The notes below the pieces were generated by a model that was given only the letters and a program-made list of their open reading frames with translations, searched no databases and had not been told where the DNA came from. Below are positions 2,414 to 12,514 of a stretch of DNA of 15,637 nt, in pieces. The position numbers and the translations under genes were made by a program. Source of the stretch: Acidobacteriota bacterium (GTDB lineage Bacteria; Acidobacteriota; UBA6911; JACQSX01); assembly GCA_036507075.1 (NCBI GenBank), contig DASXQR010000191.1:1-15637 (forward strand), read 5' to 3'. Position 1 is the first letter of the stretch; every line of letters begins with the position of its first letter.

Positions 2414-2443
2414 TTGCCACCGCGGACTTGTCACTTGTATAGT
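2414..2443 (+). promoter_or_regulatory. Putative sigma70 promoter of the rhodanese gene
   Basis: TTGCCA (2414-2419), 18-nt spacer, TATAGT (2438-2443), ending 8 nt before ATG 2452. No Shine-Dalgarno sequence. Confidence 0.45.
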
Positions 2444-2451
2444 ATTTCTTT

Positions 2452-2946
2452 ATGAAAAGAGCACTCTTGTTTATTTTTTCCCTCGCCGCCTCCTGTATCA
2501 TTGCCGCGGCGCAATCGACTCCGGCAGCTCCTCAGGGGCAGACTCCCACCGGCGGTCGCGCGCCTCTGCCACAGGAGGTTTTCTCCAAGCAACCCAATCC
2601 AGACGAGCTGGCCTCCGCGCCGCGGGTCTCACTGGCCGACCTTAAGAAGCTCATCGATTCGAGCAAGGTGGTCATTGTCGACGTCCGTGGCTTGGATTCC
2701 TATAAAACCGGTCACATTCCAGGCGCAATCTCTGTTCCGTTGATTGACATTCCAACGCGTGGAAAAGAACTCGCGGGCAAGAAAACCGTCGTCACCTACT
2801 GCAGTTGAAGTCAGGAACACAGCAGCGCCCGTGCGGCGCTGATTCTCAAGGACATGGGCATTAAGGATGCGCGCGCCCTCCTCGGCGGTTACAACGAATG
2901 GGTCAAGGAAGGCAATACGGTGGCTACCGGCGAGGAAGCGAAGTAA
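2452..2946 (+). CDS. Exported rhodanese-like selenoprotein (164 aa; in-frame TGA 2806-2808 read as Sec)
   Basis: Signal peptide, then IVDVR and GHIPGA rhodanese motifs. After YCS-TGA the frame continues SQEHSSARAALILKDMGIKDARALLGGYNEWVKEGNTVATGEEAK* (TAA 2944-2946), supplying the rhodanese C-terminal LxGGxxxW motif. SECIS-like hairpin downstream of the TGA. Confidence 0.85.
2823..2841 (+). promoter_or_regulatory. Bacterial SECIS-like hairpin
   Basis: CAGCGCC (2823-2829), loop CGTGC, GGCGCTG (2835-2841): a perfect 7-bp stem with a GU-containing apical loop, 21 nt after the UGA. Confidence 0.7.
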
Positions 2947-2959
2947 AAGGGGGCCTGAA

Positions 2960-3289
2960 CTGAACTCGACTCTGGCTCAAAAGAAATGCATCCCCTGCCG
3001 TGGCGGAATCCCTCCGCTCACACCACAGCAGATCAAACCGCTTCAGCAGCAATTAAGAGGTTGGGAAGTGGTTGATAATCATCATCTTCGGAAACAATTC
3101 AAGCTGGCTGACTTCGGTTCTGCGCTCGATCTGGTAAACCGTGTCGCAGAAATTGCGGAGAAGGAAGACCACCATCCCGATATCTGTTTTGGCTGGGGCA
3201 AAGTCGAAATCACCATCTGGACTCATAAGATCAATGGCTTGACGGAGAGTGATTTTATCCTGGCGGCAAAGATCGACGCCATTTCCTAG
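2960..3289 (+). CDS. phhB: Pterin-4-alpha-carbinolamine dehydratase (109 aa), probable CTG start
   Basis: AEKEDHHPDI and WTHKINGLTESDFILAAKID motifs, with the N-terminal LAQKKCIPCRGG extension. There is no in-frame ATG/GTG/TTG between the rhodanese stop and the domain. CTG 2960 follows AAGGGGG (2947-2953). Confidence 0.9.
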   Translation: MNSTLAQKKCIPCRGGIPPLTPQQIKPLQQQLRGWEVVDNHHLRKQFKLADFGSALDLVNRVAEIAEKEDHHPDICFGWGKVEITIWTHKINGLTESDFILAAKIDAIS

Positions 3290-4689: not shown

Positions 4690-4983
4690 ATGAACAAACT
4701 GTATGTTTCGAATCTGAATTTCAATCTGAATGAGGGAACACTGGAGAGTTTCATCAGGGATTTCGGCATTCAGGTTGAAAAGGTCGATATTATCCGGGAC
4801 ACTGCCTCGGGCCGCTCCCGCGGCTTTGGTTTTGTCCGTCTCAACGATGCTCAGGACGTGGATCAGGCCATTTCTCTGTTGAATGGAAAGAGCCTGGAAG
4901 GCCGCAGCCTCAAAGTTGAGCAGGCGCGCGAACGAACGGGCGCCATTGGCAGGCCGGAACGCAAGTTCGAAGAGCGCAGTTGA
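4690..4983 (+). CDS. RRM-domain RNA-binding protein (97 aa)
   Basis: RNP2 KLYVSNL and RNP1 RGFGFV motifs, plus LNGKSLEGRSLKVEQAR. AGGAG at 4676-4680. Confidence 0.95.
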   Translation: MNKLYVSNLNFNLNEGTLESFIRDFGIQVEKVDIIRDTASGRSRGFGFVRLNDAQDVDQAISLLNGKSLEGRSLKVEQARERTGAIGRPERKFEERS

Positions 4984-5306
4984 GTGGTACGGGAATTGCT
5001 TCGTTAATCGGTGTTATGCGGGACACGCAGACAGTACGACTCACAGATCCCAATGCGCATGAATTCGGATTTCACTTTACGGTGGGAGACCGCGTTAAAT
5101 CGACTCTGCCCAAAGGACTTAAAGGGATAGTGCGTGACGGCTGGACGGACACTCATTTCATGGGTGGTCAGGGTAAGGTTTATCTGATACGTCGCGATAA
5201 CGGAAAATATTTCAGCGCATTGGAAGAACACCTGGTAAGACTTGAGCCGGCAGAGTCTATCGAGGACCAGGAAGTGACCGAACTGGCCGGCGCAGAGAAG
5301 CAGTAA
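4980..5306 (+). CDS. Hypothetical protein with a possible SH3/KOW-like barrel
   Basis: TTG start overlaps the RRM stop (TTGA); alternative ATG at 5016. FTVGDRVK...KGIVRD...YLIRRDNG...EEHLVRL pattern suggests a small beta-barrel (inference). Confidence 0.6.
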   Translation: MSGTGIASLIGVMRDTQTVRLTDPNAHEFGFHFTVGDRVKSTLPKGLKGIVRDGWTDTHFMGGQGKVYLIRRDNGKYFSALEEHLVRLEPAESIEDQEVTELAGAEKQ

Positions 5307-5341: not shown

Positions 5342-5605
5342 CTACTTCCAGACCACCGATTTGGGTTGAACGTTTTCGCATTCAATCAGCTCGGTCATGC
5401 CACTGGAGAGCTGGCCGCAAGCGGTGGTCACCGCGGCGCGCAGTGCATCGTGCTTGTTGGAGCCGGAGGCGCGTGTCGTCACCGTCCGGCCTTTATACTG
5501 AAAGACAATTTCACACTCGTATCGTATGGGCGAGACGGTCATATAAAAAAACAGTGCGGCCACAGCCGCTAGAATCAGAAAGATGACAGCCAGTTTTCTA
5601 ATCAT
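5342..5605 (-). CDS. Small membrane-anchored or exported hypothetical protein (87 aa, 3 Cys)
   Basis: N-terminal hydrophobic helix, then YECEIV...ACGQL...IECENV. G-rich SD-like sequence upstream. Confidence 0.75.
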   Translation of the reverse strand: MIRKLAVIFLILAAVAALFFYMTVSPIRYECEIVFQYKGRTVTTRASGSNKHDALRAAVTTACGQLSSGMTELIECENVQPKSVVWK

Positions 5606-5950: not shown

Positions 5951-6385
5951 GTGATGGCCGTCTCTCAAGCTAGACAATTCGTGTGGATCATGGAACGCGA
6001 AGCCACTGCCGATCATTCCGTCACGCGTGGCTTGGCAAACCCTTGTCCGCAGCGAGGCGATCCACCAGCATGCTCGCATCAACTTCCGGGATCACGGGAT
6101 GCCGCGCTCTCCGATGACCGCCTGTCACAACGCTGGGTCCCACCAGAGCAGGCGGCAGGAATCGATTTCACCTCCAGACGCTACTACACGGACATTCAAG
6201 TGGGGCTTGATTGCGGCTTGACGGTCTGGGCTCACATTGAACCCGGGTTAGGGTTGTATGTTGATGCCGACTTGACTGCAGAGCAGAAGACGGAAGCGAT
6301 TTCTAAGATTGAGGAATTTGAAGATTTGTTGTGCGCGCTCCTCGGCCGGGACTGCCACGAAGACACGAAGACACGAAAGGCTTGA
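5951..6385 (+). CDS. Hypothetical protein (~144 aa) whose C-terminus runs into a repeat element
   Basis: AAGGAG at 5941-5946 before GTG 5951/ATG 5954. The C-terminal half looks globular. The last residues CHEDTKTRKA are translated 8-mer repeat. No family recognised. Confidence 0.45.
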   Translation: MMAVSQARQFVWIMEREATADHSVTRGLANPCPQRGDPPACSHQLPGSRDAALSDDRLSQRWVPPEQAAGIDFTSRRYYTDIQVGLDCGLTVWAHIEPGLGLYVDADLTAEQKTEAISKIEEFEDLLCALLGRDCHEDTKTRKA

Positions 6386-8901: not shown

Positions 8902-8940
8902 AAAAAAATGCGGAAGTCCGCATCCCGCATTTCTTTTTTT
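8902..8940. terminator. Possible bidirectional intrinsic terminator
   Basis: A-tract, then ATGCGG...CCGCAT stem (two alternative right arms, at 8918-8923 and 8925-8930), then T-tract. Located between convergent genes. Confidence 0.5.
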
Positions 8941-10426
8941 ATCTCACCGTGTATTCCACATAAAGATCCGTTTCTACCGCATTCTGCTGAAAATCCTTCC
9001 ACTCCTTGGAAGTCAGGGATTTGGGTTTTTTCTTTTCCTTCAACAGCGGAACGCCCCGGTCCGCGCGGAGCACGCGATCCTTGGCTTTCATGTTCAAGGT
9101 CCGCAACAGCGGGTCAAAGGGCATATCCCAGTGCTTGACTTCACGCGCAAATTTCTCGTTGACTGGAATCATGGCAACCATGTCAGGACTTTCCATCATT
9201 TCCAGTCCTTTTTCACGCAGCGTCGCATTGTGACTGGCATGATGGCCCACTTTGTAAAGGACCGTGCGGTTTAGCAGACTGCGAGCCACAATTTCACTTC
9301 CGTCGCTCTGGCGCCAGCTCAGGTTGTGCCACGACAGCCAGTTGCCCACCTGGGCGTCGCCGGGAAACAGAAGCACCCGTCCATTTGCACTCAGTTCGAT
9401 CGCCACGGCCACGCTGGTATTGTTGGTATCGCTGTCAAGCTTCAGCGCCAGCGTTCCTGCCGTGTTCAACCAGTCATCATCCACGCGGCGCCATCCCGGG
9501 GCCCGCTCTCCGCCCTCCCTGTCAAAGCCGTAATGCAGGCGAAAGAACCCATCGCAGGCTCCGGCCCTGGCTTCACTCCGGCTGAGGCGGAAGTGTGGCT
9601 CGAAGGGATAGCTCAACTCCAACTGATCTTTCTCGTCGAGGGTGAGCTGATCCTCAACGGCGCCAAAGTCCACGGCTGCGTAGAAGGCGGTGTCCGAATC
9701 AAGGGCCATCCCCTGCTCGTAGACTTCGCTGTGCGACTTGGACGGATCGGATCGCAACAGCAGCTTTCGATCTTCCGGCGGTCCCAGAACGAAAATCCGC
9801 ATATCCTCCACGCCGGACATCTTGATCGGCGGTTCCCCGGGATGCAGATAGCGCGGTGATTCCACTCGACCCAGGAGGGAATCCAAAGCAGCGCCCGTGT
9901 CGGACCCTCCTCCCTTTTTTGAGGCTCCAAAAAAATCAAGAATCTGCTGGATCTTGGCGGCCTGGTCCTTGTCTGTCGCCGCCAGGCGCTGCACGGCAAC
10001 TCGCAATGCGGCCAAACCGGCTTGCCTTTTCTTGCGCAGTTGGCGGGCCAGCTCATTGCGCGGATCTTCCGTCCAGGCCACCCACACTTGATCGATCTTG
10101 AGCGTGTCGAACAGCTCCCGCGCCTGTAAAAATCCAGAAACGTGATCCCAGTGTTCATGCGTTGCGACCACCGTGTGCACATGACCGGGTTTTGAGACAT
10201 TGCCGTGAGCGTCCACTTTTCCGCCGGTGGCCGAATGCAGATTGCGAGCGATGTCCTTCATCCGGCGGCCTGAGTCGGGGGATCCCAGGAACAGCCCGCA
10301 GTCAATGAGCATGTATCTCGGCTCACCGCTCTTTGTGTGGAAGGCGAGCAAAAAGCAGTCACCCAGACCCTGCCGGTACATTCGAACCCTCACTCCCGAT
10401 TCCGGTGCTGCCATCAGATCAGCCAT
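8939..10426 (-). CDS. MBL-fold (ComEC/Rec2-like) metallo-hydrolase with large internal insertions (495 aa)
   Basis: GLGDCFLL, LIDCG, THEHWDH (HxHxDH), NNTS, LLFPGDA and YKVGHHASHNAT motifs. AGGTG SD before ATG 10426. No signal peptide or transmembrane segment. Confidence 0.9.
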   Translation of the reverse strand: MADLMAAPESGVRVRMYRQGLGDCFLLAFHTKSGEPRYMLIDCGLFLGSPDSGRRMKDIARNLHSATGGKVDAHGNVSKPGHVHTVVATHEHWDHVSGFLQARELFDTLKIDQVWVAWTEDPRNELARQLRKKRQAGLAALRVAVQRLAATDKDQAAKIQQILDFFGASKKGGGSDTGAALDSLLGRVESPRYLHPGEPPIKMSGVEDMRIFVLGPPEDRKLLLRSDPSKSHSEVYEQGMALDSDTAFYAAVDFGAVEDQLTLDEKDQLELSYPFEPHFRLSRSEARAGACDGFFRLHYGFDREGGERAPGWRRVDDDWLNTAGTLALKLDSDTNNTSVAVAIELSANGRVLLFPGDAQVGNWLSWHNLSWRQSDGSEIVARSLLNRTVLYKVGHHASHNATLREKGLEMMESPDMVAMIPVNEKFAREVKHWDMPFDPLLRTLNMKAKDRVLRADRGVPLLKEKKKPKSLTSKEWKDFQQNAVETDLYVEYTVR

Positions 10427-10444
10427 TTATTCACCTAACGCCTC

Positions 10445-10591
10445 TGCCACGAAGGCACGAAGCCACGAAGAATTTACCTGCCCTTAGGAGTGACCTTTCT
10501 ACTGTGACTTCCTTGCTGTTGGTTTCTTGATCTGTAAGAAGTTCATGTTCAAGCCAATGAAAACCCTTCGTGGCTTCGTGGCTTTGTGGCA
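10445..10591. repeat. Element with inverted 8-mer tandem arms (copy 3, different interior)
   Basis: TGCCACGAAGGCACGAAGCCACGAAG ... CTTCGTGGCTTCGTGGCTTTGTGGCA. Fills most of the peptidase-MBL gap. Confidence 0.85.
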
Positions 10592-10594
10592 TTC

Positions 10595-12514
10595 TCAATA
10601 CCGGCTGTGCAGCACGGCAAACGGCTCGCGTGCGGCGCCGCTTCGCAGGCTGCCGAAATAAATCTCATGCAGCGACAAATCTGTCGGCCCGGTCAGATAG
10701 CTTCGCTGCCGCTCCAGTCTTCGCTCGTCGTTGATGTTTTTGCGGATGCGGTAACGAATTCTTCCGCTTTCCGGATCCACCAGCAACGTTGCTCCGCCGC
10801 GGAATTGAAAATCTTCCGTCGTGGCTTCGGAATGCTTGTCCGCTTTCTTCTGCGTTTCCGGATCAAAATACCCCCGCCGTCTTTGAGTTACTTCAATTAC
10901 CAGATCGATGATCGGTTCGCCCCTGAATCCCTGGCGGTATGTGGGGCGAACAGAATGTACTTCGAAAACCGGCGCGCCCCGCTTTCGCTCAATCGTCATG
11001 GGAGCTTTGTCGCGAAGGTCCAGCCCGACCAGTTCACCCAGCTTCGATCTATTGGGAGAGGATAGCAGCATGCGGTGCAGCGCCTGTGCGCTGCGACGCA
11101 CCTGCTCGCAAACCTTCATGCGATCTGTCGAGAGGCCCCAGTCAGGAAGCAGGCCCTTGATGCCGGCCGCCGACGGAAGAATCTCGATGAAGTTCTCATC
11201 CACGTCGGGCCAGCGCAGGTTCTCCTCGGAAAGGTTGCGCACCCGATCCGGATAAATGCCGCGACGCCGGAATGCCTCAATCACAGCGATTCGATACTCG
11301 CGTTCGTCAACCGGCACGACGTCAAAGTCGGCCGTTATGAGAGCCCGCAGATATTCACCAAACGTGATATCGACCGGCGGACAATAATCGAGCGCGCGGA
11401 TACACATCCTCAGGACGTGCTGGGCCGATTTGGAAGCCTCCATGGCCAGCCGCCCGACCAGGTCGGGATTCAATTCCCCGACGGGCAAAACGCCGCTCCC
11501 GCCTGTGGCAATCCGAAGCAGGTCGGGAATGCGCGACTTGTAGATGGAGAGAAAGGCGTCAAAGATCGCGGCCACCAGAATGGCGCCCCGATCATGCGGC
11601 TCAAAGGTCCTGGAGATCTCAGTCGGGTCGGGCTTCTTGGGTTCCCATCTTTTTGTTTCAGGATTGAAACCACCCAGGGCATCGCGCAACGCTCCATGCT
11701 GCTCGGTCGCCTGCCCGAACTGCTGGGCGAGCTGTCCCAAAAGGTTCTGGCTGGCCAGGTCCCCACGCGTCTTTGCAATCTGATGGCGGAGGACTTCCGG
11801 GAACGAAAAATGCTGAAATAGCGCGACGATATCAGCAAAAGCCTCATGAAACGCAAGAACATCTTCATTACTCGCCTCCGAGAAGCGTGGATGAAGGCCG
11901 TCCAGCAGCGCGTGAGTGGTTTCATGTGCCACAACATCGTGAGACAGGCAGGTGAAAACCGTGCCTCCGGGCAGATTGCTTCCCGGGTCGCTCGTCGAGG
12001 CGGGGAAATATCCAAAGAGCAGCGCCTTCTTTTCCGGGCTGTAATAGGCATTGGCTTCACGCAGAGCGTGGGGATAAACGCGAAGCCGCAACACCGGTTC
12101 TGACCTCATTCTGCCGTTACTTCTAAATACCCGCGACGACCATAATGCGCAGCGCCCCAATGCCTGCTCGAAGTTACCGATCGTGGTCATCACCACGGCA
12201 TAGACCATCTGCTGGTGAAACTTAGGGTTTCCCTCAGAGGGGTCCAGTCCGTCCTGAGCCAGCAGGAAGGGATGATTCAAATCGACGGGTGCGTAAAAGC
12301 ACTTGCTGGCCGGATCCACGTCCACAACTTCCACGTAATTGCCGACCGGCCCAAGCTCCAGCTTTTCTTCCCAGGGCACCTGAAACGTGATGCGATTGAC
12401 AACGGCCGTTTCCATTTGCACTGCCAGGCTGGGATCAAAGGAATATCCGCGCAGTCTTCGACGGGTAGGTTGAAGAATGCCGTCCACTTTTCTACGTTCG
12501 GTCAGGCGCGCCAC
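10595..12514 (-). CDS. Cytoplasmic gluzincin (thermolysin M4/M36-like) zinc metallopeptidase (639 aa)
   Basis: NAYY motif, HDVVAHETTHALLD (HExxH near residue 197), third-ligand HEAFAD and EPHDRGA. GAGGAG SD 7 nt before GTG 12514. No signal peptide. Confidence 0.85.
   Translation of the reverse strand: MARLTERRKVDGILQPTRRRLRGYSFDPSLAVQMETAVVNRITFQVPWEEKLELGPVGNYVEVVDVDPASKCFYAPVDLNHPFLLAQDGLDPSEGNPKFHQQMVYAVVMTTIGNFEQALGRCALWSSRVFRSNGRMRSEPVLRLRVYPHALREANAYYSPEKKALLFGYFPASTSDPGSNLPGGTVFTCLSHDVVAHETTHALLDGLHPRFSEASNEDVLAFHEAFADIVALFQHFSFPEVLRHQIAKTRGDLASQNLLGQLAQQFGQATEQHGALRDALGGFNPETKRWEPKKPDPTEISRTFEPHDRGAILVAAIFDAFLSIYKSRIPDLLRIATGGSGVLPVGELNPDLVGRLAMEASKSAQHVLRMCIRALDYCPPVDITFGEYLRALITADFDVVPVDEREYRIAVIEAFRRRGIYPDRVRNLSEENLRWPDVDENFIEILPSAAGIKGLLPDWGLSTDRMKVCEQVRRSAQALHRMLLSSPNRSKLGELVGLDLRDKAPMTIERKRGAPVFEVHSVRPTYRQGFRGEPIIDLVIEVTQRRRGYFDPETQKKADKHSEATTEDFQFRGGATLLVDPESGRIRYRIRKNINDERRLERQRSYLTGPTDLSLHEIYFGSLRSGAAREPFAVLHSRY

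Follow-up and report, generated by a model that had tools for sequence, protein, structure and literature searches.

A predicted CxU rhodanese selenoprotein of probably exported type, cut short in annotation, from an Acidobacteriota bacterium

The rhodanese locus and its in-frame UGA

The window, i.e. the whole stretch of 15,637 nucleotides analysed here, belongs to an Acidobacteriota genome (G000, 95.7% complete) and carries a gene for a single-domain rhodanese, followed by a gene for pterin-4a-carbinolamine dehydratase (PCD). The features of this locus are as follows.

2414..2443, + strand: sigma-70-like promoter match (TTGCCA, 18 nt, TATAGT; 10/12 matches), 8 nt before the ATG
2452..2946, + strand: full rhodanese gene, 164 aa, with an in-frame UGA almost certainly read as selenocysteine (frame, Pfam match, homolog comparison)
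2452..2511, + strand: signal-peptide-like leader, Ala-Ala-Ala before Gln21 (heuristic)
2632..2907, + strand: Rhodanese domain PF00581, residues 61-152 (Pfam; AlphaFold pLDDT 92)
2800-2802, + strand: TGC codon of Cys117, at the strand end that is the canonical rhodanese catalytic position; invariant in 99/99 aligned proteins
2806..2808, + strand: UGA, predicted Sec119 of a C-x-U motif (homolog column comparison)
2823..2841, + strand: putative bSECIS upper stem of 7 bp with a 5-nt loop, CGUGC, and a conserved G at 2831 (folding and comparison)
2960..3289, + strand: PCD gene, probable CTG start; also beside the orthologs in G001-G003

The reading frame opens at ATG 2452 and reaches the TGA at 2806-2808 directly after Tyr-Cys-Ser, within the active-site loop, as a sequence-only reading of this DNA had stated. 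Beyond the TGA, the frame continues for 45 sense codons to a TAA at 2944-2946, and read-through gives a 164-aa product with a C117-S-U119 loop. The claim that these codons complete the fold holds: the truncated ORF matches the 102-position Pfam Rhodanese profile (gathering threshold 22.2 bits) at positions 2-69 with 48.9 bits, and the read-through product at positions 2-101 with 75.1 bits. The database entry for the gene is a 118-aa truncation (P0002), the very outcome that had been anticipated for standard annotation. In a single-sequence protein search, which returned 8 matches only, P0003, P0005 and P0006 stop at the same YCS residue, and P0004 has Cys there and continues. These shortened entries speak for the UGA being a true stop in a truncated gene or pseudogene. 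We regard this as very improbable, together with a sequencing error or decoding as Trp or Cys, because conservation across many families extends to the TGA, to the frame behind it and to the hairpin. The in-frame stop is almost certainly a selenocysteine (Sec) codon; therefore, the gene would yield a complete protein that is cut short by gene callers. As a result, the 118-aa stump and the three further matches ending at the same residue constitute a systematic annotation error that can now be corrected.

A genome-wide reassignment of UGA was considered and ruled out. TGA is the commonest stop in the source genome, closing 971 of the 1959 ORFs with 400 codons or more, which shows that the code is not reassigned; the RRM, PIG-L, 639-aa ORF and CxxCH protein genes of the window all end in TGA as well, confirming what had been noted for the surrounding genes.

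The proposed distance of 13 nt between the TAA and the next gene is correct if the PCD gene starts at CTG 2960 and wrong otherwise. This CTG lies behind an AAGGGGG ribosome-binding site, and orthologs carry ATG at that place. Within family f1, the rhodanese gene is followed by PCD in G000-G003, and then by a PIG3-type quinone oxidoreductase gene in G001-G003. This gene order gives no pointer to a function, and the PCD neighbour says nothing about sulfur. Upstream, the promoter match is weak, since one such match was found where 0.7 were expected, and a transcript initiated there would be very short-leadered or leaderless.

Several further ORFs of the window were recorded. On the minus strand, 8939-12514 holds the 639-aa ORF, which contains a stretch resembling HE-x-x-H and matches nothing in Pfam; it adjoins a 495-aa ORF of metallo-beta-lactamase fold with weak matches only. 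The ORFs at 160-783, 4980-5306, 5342-5605 and 5951-6385 are likewise devoid of Pfam matches. By eye, G001 has ORFs resembling 160-783 and 1756-2163 upstream of its rhodanese gene, and G003 has one resembling 1756-2163 alone.

Comparative evidence for selenocysteine

The five best matches among relatives (G001-G003, G005, G036) and locus L061 all carry TGA at the same column, followed by open frames of 42-48 codons; the closest named relatives returned were Acidobacteriota (L061, L062). A profile of 8 rows was next run against 301 genomes from the phylum and against metagenomes. Loci L024-L066 and L068-L175 yielded 155 domain matches, of which 16 without a Y/F-C-x motif were dropped and 139 distinct ones kept. 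At 70 bits or more (n=102), the Sec column holds TGA in 40 genes, Cys in 62 and nothing else; at 100 bits or more, the counts are 35 TGA and 32 Cys. The 40 TGA genes comprise the window gene and three paralogs from the source genome, and the metagenome loci are biased, as the pattern used for them required Cys. Among the 30 best genome loci, picked without this Cys pattern, 22 have TGA, including the window gene, and 8 have Cys. Frames of 39-50 codons follow the TGA in all 40 TGA genes. The expectation of Cys or TGA at this column is thus borne out, with a single exception among 99 aligned database proteins, a Ser in P0152: Cys117 is present in 99/99 and C/U119 in 98/99. None of the 99 has Trp there, which argues against decoding as Trp. 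A search of protein representatives was dominated by multi-domain rhodaneses.

On a quick, poorly resolved tree (98 rows, 113 columns), 15 changes between Sec and Cys are needed, four of them forced by strong branches; therefore, the residue has switched repeatedly. Six loci carry tandem Sec and Cys copies of the exported-type rhodanese (L088, L098, L099, L100, L104, L108), 450-510 nt apart, and L081 has two adjacent Sec copies; over all seven loci the spacing runs from 450 to 610 nt. Judged from the tree, the tandem copies look like the products of at least two separate duplications.

In bacterial Sec insertion, SelB with Sec-tRNA(Sec) binds a hairpin downstream of the UGA. Such a hairpin had been described 3' of the window's UGA and is indeed present: 2823-2829 pairs with 2835-2841, and the loop CGUGC (2830-2834) begins 21 nt past the UGA, with a folding energy of -13.4 kcal/mol. 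The available portion of PMC13188914 gives the bSECIS rules as a loop of 3-9 nt, a stem of 4-16 bp, a G in loop positions 1-2, a distance of 16-37 nt from the UGA and an MFE of at most -7.5, and the hairpin agrees with all four constraints published there (5 nt, 7 bp, G second, 21 nt, -13.4). Its stability, however, does not exceed chance (z -0.28 for 55 nt; z -1.60 for 36 nt, where 11 of 200 shuffles were equal). This can be counted in favour of a true stop, and we rejected hairpin energy as evidence since it is not significant; the case for Sec therefore rests on comparative evidence. A genome-wide scan for SECIS-like hairpins, intended to outline the selenoproteome, was also discarded as too unspecific: a loose motif matched 777 of 194,475 TGA triplets, and the filter that left 353 coding-like candidates failed to pick up the window gene itself.

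The comparison between TGA and Cys genes was made in a fixed register, with nucleotides 18-24 (counted from the U of UGA) paired with 30-36 and the loop G at position 26 (G26). Among matches of at least 70 bits, at least five of the seven pairs together with G26 are found in 38 of the 40 genes with TGA and in 10 of the 62 with Cys. Synonymous codons for one and the same amino acid divide likewise. Ala+7 is encoded by GCC in 39/39 TGA genes vs 13/34 Cys genes and Ala+9 by GCG in 28/28 vs 15/40, while CGC encodes Arg+8 in 0/29 TGA genes vs 8/12 Cys genes. Across 39 aligned TGA regions, 91% of cells pair, compared to 27-56% in slid controls, and in five of the seven pairs both partners have changed (18 cells), compensatory changes at a level reached by 0 of 500 shuffles; the structure used in this pairing test was taken from one of its own rows, which favours the hairpin.

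All four components of Sec decoding, whose presence had been proposed as a check, are encoded in the source genome. tRNA-Sec(UCA) scores 71.7 bits, over its cut-off, and SelA (529 bits), SelB (380 bits) and SelD (347 bits) exceed their curated cut-offs; the selD gene itself contains an in-frame TGA at its Cys-Ala-Gly-U site. A second match over the Rfam cut-off for tRNA-Sec was rejected as tRNA-Ser(UGA). The tRNA-Sec is the sole tRNA with a UCA anticodon found in the genome, a further point against decoding as Trp or Cys. Among the five closest genomes, selB is over the cut-off in three and partial in G001; it was not found in G003, a genome that is 63% complete. The other phylum genomes whose top match was fetched as a TGA form all have selA (21/21, with a background of 231/301; kin are not independent), and the genomes with a Cys form as top match are also selA-positive (8/8).

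The runs containing the stretch are soil metagenomes, with no RNA run listed among them. A metagenome contig from run X2, which belongs to another study, covers the stretch, and no change is listed for it at the codon; it is near-identical to the window and possibly not independent, and the read check of the codon rests on X2, as runs X3 and X4 do not cover it. The TGA is common to orthologs at 35-60% identity and is therefore neither a sequencing error nor a private nonsense mutation, in line with the unchanged X2 contig. As a whole, the interpretation as a hidden selenoprotein is supported on the three counts of decoding machinery, homolog column and read evidence.

Leader, fold and relation to known rhodaneses

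The leader shows a basic start and a hydrophobic core, with Kyte-Doolittle 11-mer values of up to 2.5, and a Pro/Gln/Gly-rich linker connects it (residues 1-20) to the rhodanese domain. The orthologs do not share the weak lipobox-like Cys15; some of them have lipobox-type leaders. We consider it likely from these features that the leader is cleaved by signal peptidase I after Ala20 and that the protein works outside the cytoplasm. Our home-made signal-peptide heuristic is passed by 29 of the 40 rows with TGA and 51 of the 58 with Cys. The failures among TGA rows include three DedA fusions and two proteins without a leader (L054, L056), and in several others a hydrophobic leader can be seen by eye or the gene is truncated at a contig end. 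According to the available text of PMC13510729, an exported bacterial selenoprotein has a precedent in the periplasmic MccSep.

An AlphaFold model of residues 47-164, built with 99 sequences and with U folded as C, adopts the rhodanese fold: it superposes on 3tp9 with Z 17.6 (rmsd 1.7, 111 residues) and on GlpE with Z 15.4. Cys117 directly follows the last strand residue. The active-site loop exceeds that of 3tp9 by two residues, and Sec119 would lie two residues inside it. All 99 aligned proteins have Glu or Asp at position 122, the loop contains no Arg or Lys, and His123 is present in 33/99 only. For a characterized thiosulfate-using rhodanese, the available part of PMC10925157 describes a positively charged pocket; lacking a basic loop residue and with an acidic position 122, the window rhodanese is therefore a doubtful candidate for thiosulfate:cyanide activity. 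The long active-site loop, and a structural neighbour titled 'possible tyrosine phosphatase' (2hhg), would also suit a phosphatase or arsenate reductase of the Cdc25/Acr2 type on a rhodanese fold. The mark of these enzymes is a CX5R loop. No such motif starts from either residue (C117+6 is His, U119+6 is Ser), which makes this assignment scarcely credible.

Rhodanese-like selenoproteins had been named as a known type, and the CxU form is in fact catalogued. 'Rhodanese form 3, CxU' corresponds to the NCBIfam model NF041203 rhodanese_LYCAU (representative TKB26178.1); the available part of PMC9312934 calls the form 'COG0607 form 2', and in the catalogued texts available it stands as predicted, not experimentally verified. 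A UxU variant in a rhodanese-related family is mentioned in the accessible text of PMC1976440. NF041203 is the best NCBIfam match of the window protein and shares its single rhodanese domain and Y-C-x-U loop; all 99 aligned homologs match it at E <= 1e-10. The window protein reaches 73.2 bits vs a cut-off of 115, and is therefore a sub-cut-off relative and not a member of the model. Furthermore, its subfamily keeps H-I-x-G-A (61 of 67 matches of at least 100 bits), whereas many top NF041203 matches in the phylum read K-I/L-x-G. NF041203 is over its cut-off in 2 of 301 phylum genomes. The best of these matches, L225, likewise carries a TGA and a signal-peptide-like leader; export therefore does not distinguish the window protein from NF041203. 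The CxU rhodanese selenoprotein type is thus not new, and specialists in selenoproteins will find the result unsurprising; the window protein belongs to a subfamily that is widespread in Acidobacteriota. This extends the predicted CxU form to a broad subfamily, mostly of exported type by the heuristic, below the current HMM cut-off. Our search of article texts returned no paper that deals with this subfamily or with a CxU rhodanese that is exported or from Acidobacteriota, and the word 'rhodanese' is absent from the deep-Sep text (PMC12013277).

PspE of E. coli, Sud of Wolinella and AQ1599 of Aquifex resemble the window protein in being exported single rhodanese domains with Cys at the strand end. 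In contrast, the parts of the texts available report no Sec for any of the three, and the window protein's loop is acidic and longer than in typical single-Cys rhodaneses. Its scores against PspE (29.9 bits) and GlpE (28 bits) stay below the cut-offs of 102. The top Foldseek match is BH2092 of Bacillus halodurans (PDB 3nhv/3o3w; E 2.6e-10, TM 0.78, 31% identity), whose loop has the same length and two Cys. However, its second Cys lies at +5 and not +2, and it has no Sec; this protein is a structural-genomics target with no function in its entry title. DedA-rhodanese fusions (COG0586), with one copy in the source genome, share the C-x-U/C loop and the SECIS register but differ by their membrane-bound DedA part, which is absent from the window gene.

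Further CxU rhodaneses were seen beyond the window. Three are encoded in the source genome (L054, L056 and L055, on C69, C177 and C187), one of them a DedA fusion and the other two leaderless, scoring 110 and 102 bits against NF041203; each has a hairpin at the window gene's register. In L232, L233 and L234, a C-x-U rhodanese ends frames of ~570 codons with a long upstream domain.

Possible functions and genomic context

We lean, with some reserve, towards an extracytoplasmic sulfane-sulfur carrier or transferase with Sec as its nucleophile. The analogy is with the periplasmic PspE (available parts of PMC10215317 and PMC2593051), which turns thiosulfate into sulfane sulfur (PMC10215317, same part), and with Sud (PMC10925157, in part). 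By the established bacterial mechanism, SelB carrying Sec-tRNA(Sec) would bind the hairpin that lies 21 nt past the UGA, and translation almost certainly completes the single rhodanese domain. Sec119, being more nucleophilic, would take sulfur from polysulfide or persulfide donors; Cys117 would either hold a persulfide or resolve the adduct as a Cys-Sec selenenylsulfide, and the sulfur would be handed to a thiol or to a membrane-bound acceptor. Cys replaces Sec in many homologs, and therefore Sec would tune rate or oxidation resistance and not be essential. As a small soluble protein with natural Sec/Cys pairs, the CxU rhodanese lends itself to a direct test of its role.

The same loop could instead serve an exported selenoprotein in which C-x-U acts as a redox switch, a thiol-disulfide catalyst or a binder of soft metals or metalloids (Cu, Hg, As), a role that we hold to be possible though rather unlikely. 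The near-invariance of both C117 (99/99) and C/U119 (98/99), the acidic position 122 in a loop free of basic residues, and a loop length exceeding that of 3tp9 by two residues and equal to that of the two-Cys BH2092 are all consistent with it, and the genome's Prx-like UxxC gene with a signal-peptide-like leader could recycle the rhodanese. Against this role stand a fold that is that of a rhodanese and not of a thioredoxin, the poor conservation of His123 (33/99) and the neighbourhoods, whose commonest gene clusters (top 22 clusters, 62 loci) include no recurring metal-resistance gene.

Selenium itself might be the cargo, with the protein catching selenite-derived selenide outside the cytoplasm and passing it on, possibly to the DedA-rhodanese(CxU) paralog. 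The four CxU rhodaneses of the genome, one of them fused to DedA, would fit such a carrier. A link between DedA and selenite has reportedly been published, and ExtH, a rhodanese-like lipoprotein of Geobacter, is said to be tied to selenite uptake. We nevertheless judge a selenium carrier improbable: Cys forms are common, no linkage to sel genes recurs among the same top neighbour clusters of the 62 rhodanese loci, and the role of the DedA-rhodanese fusion is called unclear in the available part of PMC10127716.

The 62 loci show no family-wide conserved neighbourhood and lineage-specific arrangements only. Eleven loci were checked more closely, comprising ten of family f41 and L061 (Pyrinomonadaceae), which groups with f41 on the tree. 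In four of them, the rhodanese is head-to-head with an NrfC/TtrB-like Fe-S gene, which is followed by a molybdoenzyme gene (product of ~950-1000 aa); in the two that were scanned, the best match is PhsA, below its cut-off. An MBL-rhodanese gene falls within the fetched stretch in three of these four loci. L218-L221 (family f41) show the Sec rhodanese gene in divergent orientation to an NrfC-type Fe-S/membrane gene and to one for a PhsA-like molybdoenzyme, with an MBL-rhodanese gene in three of the four. The source genome contains no close homolog of the f41 molybdoenzyme (best 26% identity). This molybdoenzyme/Fe-S neighbourhood is the only functional hint, and the linkage to a sulfur cluster, as read from gene order, is restricted to a single family and may represent one inherited arrangement.

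More speculatively, and at present as an unlikely reading, soil Acidobacteriota might run an unrecognized selenium-dependent sulfur traffic outside the cytoplasm, in which the exported CxU rhodanese would collect polysulfide or persulfide and feed PhsA/Psr-like molybdoenzymes or DedA-rhodanese proteins. The adjacent Sec and Cys copies of some lineages would then form a selenium-dependent/independent pair or a heterodimer. If true, such pairs would allow the contribution of Sec to a rhodanese to be compared naturally within one operon.

Other candidate selenoproteins of the source genome were chosen by eye from motifs. An unrelated gene, for an RtcB RNA ligase (L176:2331-3782; G000:C100:16330-17781), ~12.6 kb from selA on the same contig, carries TGA in place of the conserved D-I-N-C-G Cys, which we take to be the metal-binding Cys, and shows a 7/7 hairpin with G26 at the rhodanese's register. 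Among the RtcB loci read, 8 of 35 have TGA (3 of 38 without a motif match were excluded); all eight TGA forms carry G26, and the 5-pair test is passed by 4/8 vs 1/27 Cys forms. The text of the 119-family selenoprotein catalogue does not mention RtcB, and our search of article texts returned no paper on a Sec-RtcB. Probable selenoproteins by motif are further encoded at C88:38392 (Prx-like UxxC with leader), C187:4374 (Bcp-like), C167:10060 (thioredoxin-TPR UxxC), C157:5243 (FdhA, UHxP) and C59:4866 (SelD).
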